A DNA stretch of 64,000 bases from the NCBI GenBank assembly GCA_024137785.1, contig JAHRHZ010000283.1, positions 16,097,451 to 16,161,450 on the forward strand. The letters run 5' to 3'. The notes beneath the pieces were generated by a model. That model did no database searches, had not been told where the DNA came from, and saw only the letters and a list, made by a program, of their open reading frames with translations. Both the position numbers and the translations under genes were made by a program. This document shows, piece by piece, positions 1-64,000 of the stretch (position 1 is its first letter; the number at the start of each line of letters is the position of its first letter). The DNA is from Ginglymostoma cirratum (taxonomy: Eukaryota).

Positions 1-559
1 CCTTGCCAGTGTCACCAACACACTGGGTCCAAATGCCTTTAAAATGACCCCATCATTTCATCAGCAAATGCATCTTTTAATGATTATCTCATCAATTTGC
101 TCATATGTTCCTGATATGTATGGTGTAAACCTTTCGGCAATATTTGATCTACTGACGTTAACTGTTTTCCTTTGTCTTTTTGTAGTGAAGCTTGCGGGCT
201 GTGATGCTTTTCGTGTTTTGCCTACCTCTTTGCATTGACTGTGGGTTGCTATGGCTATTGCCAGGGAAGATCTGCACGGTAAAGCAGTTCTAGTATCAGA
301 GGCAGGTGAGAATGTATGATCGGCTGGTAGTCTTAGCATCAAACTGTGAGTCCATACTTGTGTTCGACTTTAAATCCTAAAATGTTTGCCAGTTAACTTT
401 AGGGTTTCCTTGAATGTTTTTCTGATAACCATAAAGGAATGTCATAAATTCAGTCTCTCTTTCCAGGACTGAGGTTACAACAATTCAGATTTACATGTAA
501 AATAAATTACCGTCAAATGCAAAAAATGTGAAAACAGAAATATTTTTAGTTTCACAGTA

Positions 560-13544: not shown

Positions 13545-14040
13545 TAAAATGAAAAGTACTGCCGATGCTGAAAACCTGACAAAAAAAACACAGAGTGCTG
13601 AAAATATGAAGCAGGTCAGGCATCATCTGGGAAGTAGGGAGCACAGATAACATTCCAGTTCAATGATCCTTTATCAGAACAGAGGAAATTTGGTTCAGAA
13701 CAAGATAGTTTCATGGTACAAAAGAAAAGCAAATGTTAATGGGTAAAATAAACAAAAAGACATATTTCGATAAAGCATGGATTGCAGGATAGCAACCATT
13801 CAAATGAAAACTAAGAAAGCAGAAATGAGAAACAAACTGAGTTGGAAAATATAAAATCAACTCCATTGAATATCCATTCCATTCTCTCACCTTCATATGG
13901 TCTTTCATGGACTCTTTCCTTCCCTTACTTCAATTCTTTACCTCTATTTCTGTGGAAATCTTTCAGTTAATTGCCACTCCCTGCCCTCAATCCTAATATC
14001 TATCTCTCTTCACTTCTGAAGAAGGGTCATTGACCAGGGA
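13545..14040. mobile_element. Old Penelope-derived insert with oppositely oriented terminal remnants
   Basis: 13545-13680 resembles the 61950-62092 unit, and 14010-14036 CTTCTGAAGAAGGGTCATTGACC is the start of that unit in the opposite orientation. Confidence 0.55.
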
Positions 14041-26062: not shown

Positions 26063-26157
26063 TCCACAGATGCTGCCAAACCTGCTGAGCTTTTCTAGCA
26101 ATTTCTGTTTTTGTTTCTGATTTCCAACATCCACAGTTGTTTTGGTTTTTATTTTGC
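26063..26157 (+). mobile_element. Penelope-derived short unit, 3' part
   Basis: TCCACAGATGCTGCCAAACCTGCTGAGCTTTTCTAGC... is the reverse complement of about 61950-62041. Confidence 0.75.
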
Positions 26158-26625: not shown

Positions 26626-27649
26626 TGCTCTCTAAGTTCTTAACTTTTGTTCAGCAAAAACAGTGACACAGGAGTTCAATTTCAGCAAAACAAAATCCAA
26701 AGACCACCCTCAAATAATTTTGTAAAGAGAAAAAAAAGCTGCCTACAACTTCTCAACTGCAGGCAAGCACTCCTACTAAAGAACTGTAGACTGCTAATTC
26801 CAGTTTTTGGACTTTTAGACCCCATTTTAAAAGCAAGGACAATGATAAACTGATGCCCCTTAGTTATTCTTCTATTTAAGTTGTTGGTAATTGAATAATA
26901 TCCTTATCTTTCTGATTTGATGTCTCCTTCTATGTTTGCAAATGTGTCCGTGCTGAGCAGTATTCATTTACATCTAAGAGTGTGTACAAGACCCTCCTTC
27001 TAATTTAACAGTGTTGTTGCAATGATTCTAAAATTAGGGTCCACACACAGAGGGAGTACAGAAGTTACGTTCCCACTGTACTTTTTTTAAACAAGAGAAA
27101 AGTTGAATCACTGTCTACATCTGGTGAGGACAGACAAAGACATTTGCTGTAAAACTCACAACTTATCCATAGCAACAGCTTCAGTGTTGTACTTCAACTT
27201 AAAAATCTAAGGATTTGGCCATGACTTCTTTTTCTCAATATATCTGTGCAACGTCGCCTTGAAAGGTGTGTAAAGCCTCAAGCGTCAAATGAATAGCAAA
27301 ATTGGTTCATCTTTTGCTATTCTTCAACCCTGTCTACTCCTTTCAGTCTTAAAGACAGTGACTGCACAATCTCATAGGGAGATTGAAGCTAGCTCCGACG
27401 CTGAGCAACTCTTTGTGAGCTCTCTACAGCTCTCATGTTTCTTCTAACTGTTCCACACTTTTAAACCTGATTTCTAAGAATCTTGCTTTGTGCACTTCCT
27501 ATGCAGCCATAACCTTGTATGCCTCGCTCTAAGCACCCTATGATCTAATTGTCCTAGTTTGTTATGATCTGCCTGTACTGCTCGCAAAACAAAGCTCTTC
27601 ATTGTACTTAGGTACATGTGACTACAGTGAATCAAACAAACAAACAAAC

Positions 27650-27788
27650 AAAAACTGAAAGAACTGGGGATGCTGGAAATCAAAAACAAAAACAGAAATT
27701 GCTGGAAAAGCTCAAATAGGTCTGGCAACATCTGTGGAGAGAAATCAGAGTTAATGGTTCAGATCTAGGGACGCTTACTCAGAACTGC
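27650..27788 (-). mobile_element. Penelope-derived ~140-bp unit with a degenerate hammerhead
   Basis: Collinear with 61950-62092 and ends at ...TCAGAACTG; preceded by a different LINE-like tail ending in (CAAA)n. Confidence 0.8.
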
Positions 27789-31850: not shown

Positions 31851-32752
31851 GCGGAGTGAAAATATATAACTTACCACTTCATCATGTCTGTCCACATCTC
31901 ACATATTCAGTGGAACATTTCCCTCTTGAGAAAGGGGCAGGAAAGGTGGTGAGAGGGGGCAAATGATTGGGTGAGGGACATACCTGCAGTCATTCCACCA
32001 CCATTCGAAATAAGCTCTGCACAACAAAGTCCAAGCTTCTGTATCATTGACAATTGAGACCCCAAAGTCCACGGTAGTGTCCACTTAAAGACCACTTCCC
32101 ACGATTGCCATGATTAACTCAGCAATCTTCCTAATTGGTAACACAGAGTACTTTGCCTTCCAGGATGTGGTGAAGGGAGGGGAGGGAGCCCGCTCTGGGC
32201 CAATCAGGAATGATCAGGGGTTAGCTAGTGAAAGACACACCCTCCAACTCACCTGAACCTCCTCTGCTCATTAGCTCCAATTCCATGATTCTCTCCCTCC
32301 GTCCCCCCGCCTGCATGTTCCACTGTAAAGTGACTGACCTCAACCACTGCCCTTGCCTTTGACATTGTTCACAGCATTTTATTGTGTGGCAACCTCCATC
32401 AAGGTGAAATATTATTGTCCCAGGAAATGATGTTCCAAAGAGCCCAGTGAGGGACCACTTAAGAGTTTGACAGGCATCAGACCCAGTGGGCTTTTCAGCT
32501 CAAAGTGGTGAGGTTGTCCTGCATTATCACACTCACTGCCACAACTGGAAAAATAGTCAGGAAAATTCCAGCCATTAACTTTGCCAATGAAATAAATGTA
32601 TGAATTTAGTCCTCCTCCTATGTTACTCGAATCATCCATTGGCAATGTATCAGAAAAGTCCAGTACAAACCTCCCCACATCTCCCCACACCAACACATCG
32701 TGAAAATTTTCTGGCCTGGCTTATTCAGTATTGCTATCAGTGGCAGATCTAA

Positions 32753-32851
32753 GAGTTTTCCAAAGAAGGGTCCAGACCCAAAACGTCAGCTTTCCTGCTC
32801 CTCTGATGCTGCTTGGCCTGCTGTGTTCATCCAGCTCTACACTTTGTTATC
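32753..32851 (+). mobile_element. Penelope-derived short insert with TSD
   Basis: AAGAAGGGTCCAGACCCAAAACGTCAGC (mutated hammerhead), flanked by TCAGTGGCAGATCTAA (32737-32752) and TCAGTGTTAGATCTAA (32852-32867). Confidence 0.8.
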
Positions 32852-33027: not shown

Positions 33028-33157
33028 AAAAAGGAACTGTGGATGCTGGAAATTTGAAACAAAAGCATAAATTGGTGTAAAATCTCAGCAGGTCTGGCAG
33101 CATCTGTGGAGAGAAATCAGCGTTAATGTTTCAGGTCCAGTGACAATTCTTCAGAAT
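33028..33157 (-). mobile_element. Penelope-derived ~130-bp unit
   Basis: Collinear with 61950-62092 and ends TTCTTCAGAAT. Confidence 0.75.
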
Positions 33158-39984: not shown

Positions 39985-40185
39985 CACAAACAGAATTTGC
40001 TGAAGAAACCCAGTTAGTGTGGCACCATCCGTGTAGAACGGGCAAAATTAATGTTGTGTTCTTCTTCAGAACAGGACCAAAAACATTAATTCTGTTTTCT
40101 GTCCACAGATGCTGTAGACCTGCTGAGTTTTTCCAGCTATTTCTATTTGCATTTCTGATTTCCAGCATCCACAGTCTTTGGGGTT
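39985..40185. mobile_element. Penelope-derived insert of two units in inverted orientation
   Basis: 39985-40072 and 40080-40185 are opposite-orientation copies of the 61950-62092 unit. Confidence 0.7.
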
Positions 40186-40569
40186 TTTTGTGGGAAGAAT
40201 GATCCCTGCTATGCTGAGACTGGTAACAGAGAATTACGATATAGTTCCAAATCCAAAAGATGTGTATTTTGGAAGGGGACTGACTTGCAGGTGGTGGTGC
40301 TCTCAACTGTCGATGTGTCCTTCCAGCAGGGCATGGGTTTGGAAGCTGCCTTCAAAAGGGACTTGGCGAGTTGCTTGTATGTTTCATATTCAAGGACTTT
40401 TTCCTGGTACTAATCTGCTACGTGAATCTTAACTGGTATCTCAAAATAAACTCCAAATTCTTTTTAACCAGCTCACTTCCTCTGTTTTGCCTCTCTTATT
40501 AGTTCAAGCTTCAGTTTATCAGGAGCTATTAAGCCTCCAGAAGCAATGTGGACTTCAATTTCTCAAAGT

Positions 40570-53466: not shown

Positions 53467-53562
53467 TAATTCTGATGAAGCATCACCGGAGTTGAGACAT
53501 TAACTCTGCTTTCTCTCCACAGACCTGCTGAGTTTCTCCAGCAATTCCACAGTTCTTGGTTT
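53467..53562 (+). mobile_element. Penelope-derived unit with a degenerate hammerhead
   Basis: TTCTGATGAAG...GAGACATTAACTCTGCTTTCTCTCCACAGACCTGCTGAG. Confidence 0.7.
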
Positions 53563-57937: not shown

Positions 57938-58518
57938 GAGATAAAAGGTACTGCAGATGCTGGAGAATCCAAGATAACAAGCATGGGGCTGGATGAACAC
58001 AGCAGGTCAAGCAGCATCATAGGAGCAGGAAAACTTGACGTTTCGGGCCTAAACCCCTCATCAGAAATGGGGGAGGGGAAGAGGGTTCTGAAATAAATAG
58101 GGAGAGAGGGGGAGGTGGATAGAGGATGGATAGAGGAGAGGATAGGTGGAGAGGAGGCAGACAAGTAGAAGAGGCGGGGATGGAGCCAGTAAAGGTGAGT
58201 GTAGGTAGGGGGGTAGGGAGGAGATAGGTCAGTCCAGGGAGGACGGACAAGTCAAGGGGGCGGGATGATGTTAGTAGATAGGAGATGGGGGTGTGGCTTG
58301 AGGTGAGAGGAAAAACAGGTTAGGGAGGTGGGGATGAGCTGGGCTGGTTTTGGGATGCAGTTGGGGGAGGGGAGATTTTGAAGCTTGTGAAATCCACATT
58401 GATGCCATTGGGCTGCAGGGTTCCCAGGCTGAATATGATTTGCTGTTCCTGCAGCCTTCGGGATCCTGCTCCTATGATGCTGTTTGACCTGCTGTGTTCA
58501 TCCAGCCCCATGCTTGTT
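57938..58518 (-). mobile_element. Penelope-like element 3' fragment (GIY-YIG C-terminus) with inverted termini and a 14-bp TSD
   Basis: RRLQEQQIIFSLGTLQPNGINVDF (PLE endonuclease C-terminal motif); ~56-bp inverted repeat 57975-58030 / 58464-58519 with one mismatch; TSD ACAATGGTGAACAA at 57924-57937 and 58519-58532. Confidence 0.9.
58033..58068 (-). ncRNA. Minimal type-I hammerhead ribozyme motif (PLE-associated)
   Basis: AUUU-CUGAUGA-G-GGGU(UUAG)GCCC-GAA-ACGU-C-AAGU: intact core, stem II, palindromic stem III, GUC cleavage triplet and stem I AUUU/AAGU. Confidence 0.7.
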
Positions 58519-59470: not shown

Positions 59471-59831
59471 TTCATGGCTGTGAATAATACAGTAATTTGA
59501 AAAGGACTGGTAACTTGACAAGAAAGTTTTATTGATTTTCATAAACACTCATCAGACCTTGAATTTTTTTCACACAAATAGGTAAAGATTCTATATTCAC
59601 TGATGCAGTAAATTATAACCACTCAATGCAAGATAATTGCGATATGTGATTTGGTTAAAAATTGCAACATCCAAACATGAACTCATTGTATCTGCATCCA
59701 AATTTCACTCAGCACATCAAAACAAAGTTACAATGTTAAGGCAGGAAGCACTGTTCTACAGGCACCAACTACCTATTGATGTTTCAATTAAGTGGCAATT
59801 CTCCATTTCAAACCTAAGTGTTCAATGTTGA

Positions 59832-60012
59832 CAAACAGGAGGCTGTAAGAACACAGCAGGCCAGGCAGCATCTCGAGGAAAGGAGCAGTCAGCATTTTGG
59901 GTATTACCCTCCTTTCCTCCAGACGTTGCCTGGCTTGTTGTGTTCTTCCAGCCTCCTGTTTGTCCACCTTGGATTCCAGCATCTACAGGTTTTTTTTTTC
60001 GGTCTCTAAATC
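59832..60012. mobile_element. Penelope-derived fold-back insert with a 13-bp TSD
   Basis: Arms ~59827-59885 and 59909-59968 are inverted; TGTTCAATGTTGA occurs at 59819-59831 and 60013-60025. Confidence 0.85.
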
Positions 60013-60613: not shown

Positions 60614-61949
60614 AACTCCCAATATTTAAAAGGCTACATTTACATTTAAATATGTTTCTGTTTAAACATTTTTAAAATAGATTCAGTCCAATTTCAGCCC
60701 AAATGACCCAAGAGGAAATAAAACTCATTTGTCATGCTGAGTAACACAAACCAGAAAGATCCAGGTTTAATCCCTATCTTCTTTTCAATAACTGTTCCAC
60801 GTCTACATTATGATGGAATAATCAAGTAGGTTCAGCATTCTCAAATCAAAGAAGAGGAAAATCAGCATGAGCTCCTGCTCATAAATAATATCCAATCTCC
60901 TTACTGAAAAGCCTGTTTGCTTGAATGTAAGTCTATATGTTTTGCATATACCGACAGACACAATGCAAAGTTGTGATTGGGCTACTTACAATGTTCAGAA
61001 CCTGTTGACACTCACTGTCAAAGCTCATGCGTGCAAAACTCAAGAAATTGCCTCCAGACCGCACAGAACTATATCTACACTGAAGCAGAGCTCAGAGTAA
61101 CTTTAATGGTTAGGAATCCATGGGATCAAACAAAATGTTCTTATAAATCTTATCCAATATTATTTTCCAAAGAGGAAAATGGAGAGTAAAACTAGGCAGG
61201 CAGTAAAAGCCAGAATTGTACCCGAGACTGTATCAATCTCAGCAAGGTCAGCTTCTGGCCTTCAGGAAAATAAGGGGAAAAGCAAGCTATTTTTCTCTAA
61301 CAATTGCCAATATCTCCAGTAGCACTGCACCAGTGTCTGCTTGACAAAGACTTACTTTGGATTTTATGATTCTTGCTCCGTACTGATGCTGTAATATCTA
61401 CCTTGTGCCAATAGACTCCTGCGTCATTCCAATTGCTATAATGAATCTCAGGAGGAATACGAATTTGTGAATGAGATCATTCATCAATAGGGTTGAGTCT
61501 CATTATAAAGGATGACAGCTCAGAGGCAGTAGGCGGTGAGTCAGCCCTGGTGTTGACTTCCTAAAGTCAGTATCAGTGCAGCATCTCCCTGACAAAACAC
61601 AAGAAGCTGAATCTTGGATGATGAATGCAGAAACAGGAATGCAGTGTAGTCAATCCTTTAGGGTGAAGCAGCACCTATTGAATCCATAGACAACCTGCAC
61701 GTAAAAGGGCTGAACTGACAAGGATGGCGAGAAGCCTGATGTGCATCACTAGAATATATGACCACTCCTAGCTCTAGGACCACCTCTAGCTAGTGAGAAA
61801 TCTGCAGAGTGGGGCTCCCAACTTTATCTGTTACATTTCTCTCAATAGGGCAGAAAGTTCACCCCTCCCACCAACAAGCGTCTGTTCCAACCTGCCTGAG
61901 TCAAGTGACCCCTTCTACACTCCCTGTAGGCAGATATCTTGAGCTTCTC

Positions 61950-62092
61950 AAATAAAAACCAAAAGAACTGCGGATGCTGTAAATCAGGAACAAAAACAAA
62001 GTTGCTGGAAAAGCTCAGCAGGTCTGGCAGAATCTGTGGAGGAGAAAACAGAGTTAACGTTTCGGGTCCGGCGACCCTTCCTCAGAACTGAC
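61950..62092 (-). mobile_element. Penelope-derived 143-bp unit with TSD
   Basis: Flanked by TCTTGAGCTTCTC (61937-61949) and TCTTAAGCTTCTC (62093-62105); the best-preserved copy of the family. Confidence 0.88.
62052..62089 (-). ncRNA. Minimal type-I hammerhead ribozyme motif
   Basis: AGUU-CUGAGGA-A-GGGUC(GCCG)GACCC-GAA-ACGU-U-AACU: perfect 4-bp stem I, 5-bp stem II, CUGANGA/GAAA core and palindromic ACGU stem III. Confidence 0.8.
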
Positions 62093-62264
62093 TCTTAAGC
62101 TTCTCTGAGAGTCATACAGCACATAAAGCCCTCACGTTGAACACACTCAGGACAGGCACTAGCTGAGTGTTCAGAACTGGTATAAAAAGCACAGCTGCAG
62201 AGCTGAGAGCTGCCAGTGTAAAAGATGAAATGAAGACCACAGTTAAAACACTACTTCACAGAAA

Positions 62265-64000
62265 ATGGCGACAGCTTTACCCCCAAGAGCTCCTGTTCAA
62301 ATTACTGGAGATATATGAGTCAGGACTGGTCACTCATCCATGAACAATGGCAGAGTTATGCAATTGTTATGGAGTTGTTGAGCAAACTAGAACAATTATT
62401 ACACTGTTGAGAAGAGAATCTTTGAAAATATATTCCAACTTAAATCTCCCTGAGCAGCAGAAACAGCACATGGCAAAAAAATTAAAAGCTTTGAAGCCAA
62501 GTTTGATCCCCAAATTGACGTTAGACATGCACAGTAAGTTTTCAACACCAGGCAAAGTAAGATAAAATCCATGAGTATTTATGTAACATCACAGATACAG
62601 CTTGTAGAAACATATGAATTTTTACAATTAAAAGATGAGCAATTAAAGACAGGATTATATTAGGAATAAGGGATCCAAAAGTGAAAGTACGTCTACTAAG
62701 AGAAGACAAAACTATACTCAGAAGAGCAATGGATCCGTGCAGAACTGCTGAGACTGCAGATCAACTTCTTGAGCAGATTCATGGTAGAAAAGACCAGGTC
62801 TTGTTTAAGCTGACAGATACACTAGACACAGAAAGAACAGCAATCACAGACGTAGGGCAGGATGCAAATACTGTCAAACACATCATAGGAAAAAGAAGGC
62901 AAGTCCAGAATGTTGAAACCAGTGTTCTCACTGCACAATTTTGCACATAAGTATATTGCAGAAAAGAAGCTGACTTTGCCAAGTGAACCTGAAGTAGGAC
63001 AAGAAAAGGTAATAATTATAGATTCCTGAATGCCTGATGTAATGTCCATAGGCCATGCATTGAAAGTAAAACATTTTGCTTAGATCCCAAAAAGGTGAGA
63101 ACTGTAGCATCAATGCAGTGGCCGACACAAGTAAAAGGAATGCAGTGATTTATTAGGTTCATTGACTGTTTGGCAACATTCTTGATCAATTGATCAGTGG
63201 GGTGTGAACGATTATGGCAATTCATGGGAGAGGATGTGCAGTGTTTTGGGGCATAGAACAAAAGCAGAAATAATTAAAATCAAGCAACTAGTGACAAAAA
63301 CATCATTGCTTGAAAACTGCAATGTAAATAATGAAATAGCAGCAAGGCATGACTTGGAACTACCCTAATGCAGCAAGGTCAATTGTTTGCATTTTCATCC
63401 AGGGCACCAACCCATACAGAAAGATATTATACCCAAATCCAGCAAGTGTACGTTCCCATTGTCTTTACTTATGAATATTTCAAACAATACTTACTTCAAA
63501 GAGATAAAATGATAGTCGAGTCTGACCACGAACCACTCCATTTTCCTCAAGCCATTACTATCTCCTCCGAAGTGTCTGCAATGAATGCGATTTTGGTTAC
63601 TGAGATATCATCTGGATGTGGCATAGCAAGCAGACATATATTGCAGACATGCTATTGAAAGCAGTCCTCCTGGTGAAGAAAAAGTAGAAGATGCTACGAC
63701 AGCACATGCAATCTCCCAGATTCTGGTCAAGCAGTGGAAGTCATCAAACCAAGCAAAAGACAACCAATGTAACAGACAAGCAACTTGCTCAAAACTACCC
63801 AACAAATGCAATTCACCCAGTGTGGCAGGAAGCCATGGTGAAAGAATGGCCAGAGAGTATCAAGGACATGCCTGTTGCTTTAGGAGCATACTGGACATCG
63901 AGAGACAAATTGACAGGCCAAGATGGCATATTGTACAAAAGGAAACAGAGTAATTATCCTGAAACAGTTGAGAGGAGAGAAAATAAAATTGTATCCAAGC
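62265..64000 (+). mobile_element. Decayed, internally deleted Ty3/Gypsy gag-pol running off the window end
   Basis: Gag KDRIILGIRDPKVKVRLLRED...AMDPCRTAE; RT thumb DPKKVRTVASMQWPT; RNase H QQGQLFAFSSRAPTHTERYYTQI...VESDHEPL; then AYWTSRDKLTGQDGILYK. Confidence 0.88.

Follow-up and report, generated by a model that had tools for sequence, protein, structure and literature searches.

Minimal hammerhead ribozymes in the pseudo-LTRs (pLTRs) of metazoan Penelope-like elements (PLEs) are among the closest described counterparts of the locus reported here (Cervera and De la Pena 2014, PMC4209133). In the part of that report covered here, which does not extend to cartilaginous fishes, these motifs lack helix III, are palindromic at 15.2-16.2, carry an extra residue that separates position 9 from 10.1, and have a G10.1-C11.1 pair and a 4-bp helix I. 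The same part describes solitary motifs scattered by the thousand and associated with truncated PLEs, as well as pairs on opposite strands, and all of this recurs at our locus and in its family. Single motifs are there called truncated PLEs, with their ends unmapped, whereas here the ends are fixed at the front edge of the hammerhead.

Endonuclease-bearing PLEs of the Neptune clade, as described in the portions consulted of two further reports (PMC8557442, PMC3846280), share with the present element a reverse transcriptase (RT) followed by a GIY-YIG endonuclease, a CX2-5CxxC linker, a partial-tandem pLTR, an inverted adjacent copy, a 30-40-bp tail, target-site duplications (TSDs) of ~10-16 bp, and solo pLTRs; the second of these notes a pair of TATA and initiator-like (Inr-like) motifs in a rotifer pLTR, resembling the layout described below. 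In contrast to those elements, most copies here are no more than a module of 100-140 nt and lack the portion of the pLTR that derives from the 3′ UTR. The role of the hammerhead in endonuclease-bearing PLEs is called unclear in the sections of PMC8557442 that we cover.

Two other systems invite comparison. For the Anolis Poseidon element PAc, the main text of an in vitro study (PMC11167929) describes two internal RT starts near the RNA 5′ end that define the tail, extension of both target strands, and unprocessed, uncleaved RNA as the main substrate and template, while presenting the steps of PLE insertion as only partly shown and drawing no link between genomic 5′ ends and a start site. PAc belongs to the Poseidon clade, and the start of its ORF is within the hammerhead; in the present element no plausible ATG occurs until ~170 nt after the core residue C3. 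Animal non-LTR retrozymes, as far as the covered parts of two accounts go (PMC7229834; 10.64898/2026.07.22.740005), likewise have a type I hammerhead, are non-coding, are linked to PLE pLTRs, and also exist as solo monomers. They are, however, defined as tandem arrays in which every unit has its own, mostly canonical, hammerhead, and they give circular RNA, whereas the unit here is solo, minimal, and part of a parent element.

The unit lies in the window, by which we mean the whole 64,000-nucleotide stretch of Ginglymostoma cirratum DNA analyzed, and offsets are numbered from hammerhead core C3 (62085, minus strand). The ribozyme motif is composed as follows.

62052..62089, minus strand: minimal type I hammerhead with its core intact (stem I of 4 bp and stem II of 5 bp, together with the extra A, loop-less ACGU and GUU triplet)
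62089-62086, minus strand: stem I 5′ arm, AGUU
62085-62079, minus strand: core CUGAGGA
62078, minus strand: extra A between core and stem II
62077-62073 with 62068-62064, minus strand: stem II, GGGUC/GACCC, loop GCCG
62063-62060, minus strand: GAAA
62060-62057, minus strand: loop-less palindrome ACGU
62056, minus strand: H17 = U, triplet GUU, with the predicted cut between 62056 and 62055
62055-62052, minus strand: stem I 3′ arm, AACU

The type I motif reads as the initial annotation had described it, including the loop-less ACGU in place of stem III and the extra A between A9 and stem II. The core requirement of CUGANGA, GAAA and NUH is found in full, and the complete set of PLE minimal-hammerhead features—no helix III, a palindromic 15.2-16.2, the nucleotide between 9 and 10.1, and G10.1-C11.1—bears out the Penelope-type assignment made at that stage. 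The extra nucleotide is present in 142 of 142 descriptor matches, though the descriptor allowed none. An Rfam search, which the initial annotation had proposed as a check, returned no hammerhead family between 61000 and 63000 at E up to 10, only five weak unrelated matches, and comparison of folding energy with shuffles (z -0.46 to 0.33 for the motif, -0.89 for the unit) lends the fold no thermodynamic support. Because neither supports the motif, the hammerhead call rests on the exact core and the PLE minimal-hammerhead features (covered part of PMC4209133). Across families, stems I and II of seven hand-picked copies are paired in 90% of cells with one two-sided change (stem I G-C to U-G), a score reached by 138 of 500 shuffles. 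The motif is nevertheless not a chance match, since a 34-nt hammerhead pattern has 2,782 exact matches in the genome and its reversed control none. Nor is it rare: the genome-wide copy count also proposed at the outset gave 8,145 places for a pattern requiring intact core, stem II and palindrome (reversed control 0).

The hammerhead sits within a discrete insertion in an older repeat.

61950..62092, minus strand: inserted unit, positions -6 to +135 of a Neptune-type PLE terminal module, plus an extra G at 62092
62093..62105, strand not applicable: TSD copy at the element 5′ end, matching the ancestral target of empty paralogues
61937..61949, strand not applicable: TSD copy at the element 3′ end, with one substitution at 61941
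61900..64000, plus strand: host sequence outside the element, an old decayed LTR-retrotransposon-like repeat, ~70% identical to paralogues

The 143 bp are enclosed by a 13-bp direct repeat identical at 12 positions, as first annotated, and the duplication is real because paralogous empty sites hold the target once. Host-repeat paralogues were found with a right-flank query; the left flank alone found none. In 11 of 14 the left flank aligns (shuffle p <= 0.025) and is followed by right-flank-like sequence with a single target, and these 11 are 139-190 nt shorter than the window across the insertion site; one of the remaining paralogues is borderline and two have no left-flank alignment. The substitution at 61941 would postdate the insertion. 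TSDs of at least 10 nt with at most one mismatch flank 46 of 75 non-inverted short copies of the family, against 1.5% of shuffled flank pairs. With its TSD and with ends typical of this PLE family, the unit is thus an independent insertion, as had been proposed, although its edge needed adjustment: the hammerhead lies near the end of the unit but not at the very end, since the unit starts 3 nt earlier, with the extra G followed by positions -6 and -5.

The search for empty sites succeeded in the paralogous repeats just described, but none was seen in another organism among the joints listed. Both junctions of the window copy are present in contigs of a diverged individual or relative, where the flanks differ at 27/776 and 36/837 letters (~3.5-4%), and the copy is therefore not brand new; within the unit these matches extend for 26 and 29 letters, short of the 31 that the bridging rule demands. 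As for the host repeat, positions 62170-64000 resemble the internal region of a decayed LTR retrotransposon and include, at 63353-63655, what remains of an RT RNase H (RT_RNaseH PF17917, E 5.7e-9, Pfam search). The stub lies antisense, near the apparent 3′ end of the host LTR. Among the host-repeat paralogues, L207 holds an independent stub of the same kind (1258-1385) ~30 nt from the same target, which may be chance at such copy density, and L209 also has PLE pieces nearby.

Judged from sequence features, the 143-bp unit is the terminal module of a 3.1-3.2-kb PLE of Neptune type with predicted RT and GIY-YIG domains. Sequence upstream of the module is common to 7 of 29 other top loci and continues into an ORF that combines RT motifs with a C-x4-C-x2-C linker and a GIY-YIG-type end. 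Two natural frames free of stops, 515 and 479 aa long, match RVT_1 (E 1.9e-5) and GIY-YIG (E 0.0019) at scores that fall short of the curated Pfam cut-offs. Among their homologues are shark and ray proteins, which points to a cartilaginous fish as the likely host, and several proteins of 800-900 aa with both domains; a Pfam search with six short ORF pieces and a PDB sequence search with the 515-aa frame each gave no matches. The Neptune assignment follows from the linker, which excludes Poseidon, together with vertebrate distribution, rather than from an RT tree: CX2-5CxxC between RT and endonuclease is a Neptune feature, common to Nematis (covered part of PMC8557442), and only Neptune and Poseidon have been found in vertebrates according to the part seen of 10.64898/2026.07.22.740005.

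The module terminates 28 of 30 endonuclease-anchored loci and stands at both ends of three near-full copies (L101, L112 and L098), two of which were measured and repeat every 3.14-3.18 kb. The three copies start at -226, at -2 (where stubs begin) and at +9, respectively. An adjacent inverted piece accompanies 47 of 122 short copies, and a partial-tandem pLTR with hammerhead, an inverted adjacent copy, a 30-40-bp tail and a TSD were all found for the parent element. The module thus forms the end of an insertion as well as the foremost part of the 5′ UTR of the element, much as in the PLE pLTRs of the passages we cover (PMC8557442, PMC3846280). In L101 and L112, the first plausible ATG comes straight after a pyrimidine tract that closes with CAG, ~140-170 nt past the first C3; the tract resembles a 5′ UTR splice acceptor as in Penelope, where an intron lies between start and hammerhead (parts of PMC2377424 and PMC4209133), and no donor was identified.

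The initial annotation had gone further and treated the unit as non-autonomous and retrozyme-like. Stubs outnumber long copies by ~4:1 (exact-match counts combined with per-base conservation) and have fixed ends and TSDs of their own, and animal retrozymes have been argued to derive from PLE pLTRs (10.64898/2026.07.22.740005, in part), all of which might be expected of a distinct non-autonomous family of ~140 nt, akin to retrozymes or SINEs, with its own master copies and PLE proteins acting in trans. Three columns even distinguish short from long copies in a pooled, biased sample (p 0.001-0.002). In two samples anchored on neither the window nor the ORF, however, all 15 variable columns gave p > 0.2, and short-long identity (86.1%) is not below short-short identity (85.4%), these comparisons resting on allele counts and identities within a 96-nt region. 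Tandem arrays are lacking, with a same-strand pair within 1 kb in 3 of 97 loci and the window copy itself solo; stubs have no TATA box; and their ends precede the ribozyme instead of coinciding with the cut site, as the ends of a retrozyme monomer would. Tandem hammerhead repeats, a cut-site-bounded unit and a separate lineage were each looked for and none was found. With short and long copies inseparable and the module ending nearly all endonuclease-anchored copies, we have abandoned the retrozyme-like label and consider a separate family distinctly unlikely.

The ends of family copies are more informative. Copies were sampled through exact matches (8,949 genome-wide) to a word of 38 nt that lies downstream of the ribozyme, taking the first places in contigs C1-C3; 95 anchored segments gave 93 distinct ones, of which nine with masked flanks were excluded to leave 84 for the 5′ count. 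The 3′ ends (n=93) form two clusters ~37 nt apart, 40 at +93..105 and 46 at +126..140 with seven elsewhere, a spacing that equals the PLE tail (30-40 bp).

61950..61988, minus strand: PLE tail, the stretch between the two 3′-end clusters, carried by the window copy

At the other side, 37 of 84 5′ ends fall within 0..-7, a density of 4.6 per nt against 0.2-0.4 per nt in the flanking positions (binomial p 4e-25), with ends beyond about -460 censored by the search window. The mode is -3 and the spread 0 to -7. There is no excess around the cut site, where +27..33 holds 3 of 23 internal 5′ ends (p 0.54). A hammerhead-anchored sample places 22 of 30 5′ ends at -1..-7, exact genome matches number 26,976 reaching -3 and 4,412 extending to -9, and of the 10 inverted joints listed in DNA contigs of the diverged individual or relative, 7 end at -3..-6.

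An extra G next to the 5′ end is the expected trace of a copied cap. It adjoins 19 of 39 copies ending at -3, and G-rich stretches that were copied again from the element occur at many junctions. At the 5′ junctions of L153, L154, L084 and L196, short pieces re-copied from the element's first dozen bases stand between TSD and 5′ end, as if the RT had jumped back at the template end. At the inverted junctions of L124, L130 and L137, the inverted arm extends as far as -3/-4, and the direct one picks up again at ~+30..36; the microhomology that joins them may be the two stem I arms. A splice-acceptor origin of the 5′ end, suggested by AG at -4/-3, was rejected, as TSDs abut the unit and a second family has no AG there.

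Upstream of the preferred 5′ end, long copies have a promoter-like layout. TATAAA, which is intact in 55 of 75, begins at -33 and precedes the A at -4 by 29 nt; no TATA-like motif precedes the window copy.

62085..62091, minus strand: initiator-like TCAGTTC, with its A at 62089 (position -4) being the first base of stem I

We take TCAGTTC to be initiator-like from its agreement with the YYANWYY consensus and from TATA-initiator spacing. The layout recurs in a second family, whose hammerhead and spacer differ and whose copies were selected by match from C3 onward: TATTTAT stands at -35 in 15 of 17 long copies, an A lies at -4, and all 19 short copies end at 0..-4 with a mode of -3. The window contains an intact minimal hammerhead of this second family at 58038-58064 (minus strand), differing at N7, stem II, H17 and stem I and retaining the upstream TATTTAT region.

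We think it probable that the stubs are run-off cDNAs, primed at the tail site and ending where the uncleaved RNA of the element starts. This account brings together the identity of the module, the fixed 5′ and 3′ ends, the real TSD, the lack of a cut-site excess, and the TATA plus initiator-like layout in two families. Element RNA would start at -4 (or -3), the first base of stem I, from a promoter within the 3′ UTR of a tandem copy lying upstream. The element's own enzyme would then prime at the tail site, ~135 nt into the RNA for the window unit. By analogy with the anole Poseidon element in vitro, where RT starts internally at two sites (PMC11167929, in the part covered), target-primed reverse transcription would begin at +95-100 or +133; those priming data are for a Poseidon element, whereas the parent here is of Neptune type. 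The RT would likely run off the uncleaved RNA 5′ end just ahead of the hammerhead, and the resulting stub, having lost the TATA box, would be a dead end.

Some observations sit less easily with a start site. The modal end is -3, whereas the initiator-like A is at -4; the extra G next to 5′ ends is not a clean signal; and the only mapped Penelope promoter, that of Drosophila, is internal and TATA-less (PMC2377424, seen in part). A weak hairpin also covers -7..-1 in the fold of a long copy, where -29..-24 can pair with -6..-1. Such structure is what one would look for if the 5′ ends marked a truncation hot spot, with RT on tandem or read-through RNA stalling or switching template at the hammerhead front, through RNA structure or bound protein, on an RNA that does not end there. 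PLE insertions are often 5′-truncated (PMC8557442, PMC4209133, in the parts covered), and the predicted pairing of positions -4..+6 with upstream sequence averages 6.5 nt. That pairing is, however, no greater than in shuffles, 27% and 45% of which reach the observed median in the two families; the stronger stem II gives no peak (0.42 ends per nt at +1..26); and the mode stays at -3 in both families despite different upstream sequence. Stalling at the hammerhead front thus seems unlikely. An upstream hairpin silencing the ribozyme in read-through RNA was also considered and rejected, the pairing not exceeding that of shuffles.

Returning to run-off from a transcription start, on balance we favor a broader model in which Neptune RNA comes from a TATA/initiator promoter with +1 at the first base of stem I and is primed 95-135 nt in, so that most insertions would be short run-offs, read-through would make full copies, and the ribozyme would set no template end. 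If the start-site reading is true, tens of thousands of stubs amount to a genomic run-off assay. PLE start sites would be readable from genome sequence alone, dispersed solo minimal hammerheads would be by-products of priming near the RNA 5′ end, and ribozyme cleavage would not shape the template in vivo, all of which counsels caution against counting such monomers as retrozymes. We found no paper on this family, or on solo PLE hammerhead ends as a start site, in a search that left subscription journals, Repbase reports and supplements outside its scope.

The window copy itself is ordinary; it is the family pattern that offers the testable part. The core and stems of this copy are intact and, as both junctions in the diverged individual or relative indicate, it is not brand new, which might suggest a working and possibly co-opted ribozyme that cleaves a host transcript. 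Its preservation is not unusual, however: over 96 columns it departs from the family majority 3 times, against a median of 5, and 33 of 109 copies, part of them chosen by exact hammerhead match, are as close or closer, while core CpG positions decay freely among copies (G12 changed in 11 of 60). Single minimal hammerheads show no cleavage in vitro and dimers cleave weakly (covered part of PMC4209133), and the anole hammerhead tested with protein needed that of the element (PMC11167929, likewise in part). The window copy has no tandem partner, its active dimer fold (-18.1 kcal/mol) is less stable than the best dimer (-26.0) and than two monomers (-20.0), and in the fold of the whole unit GAAAC is taken up by an alternative pairing. 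A solo hammerhead with neither partner, protein nor promoter would be expected to stay silent. We therefore judge from these predictions that cleavage by this solo, promoterless copy, which had been thought possibly competent, is unlikely, and co-option highly improbable.

The window also illustrates the density of these families, with nine other pieces of the same or sister PLE families (E < 1e-4). Decayed stubs lie at 904-967, 13546-13683, 26063-26154, 27645-27787, 32750-32835, 33030-33156, 40074-40197 and 53470-53544, and a ~150-bp self-complementary stretch (59823-59971, 78% identity) includes a piece like the second PLE family.
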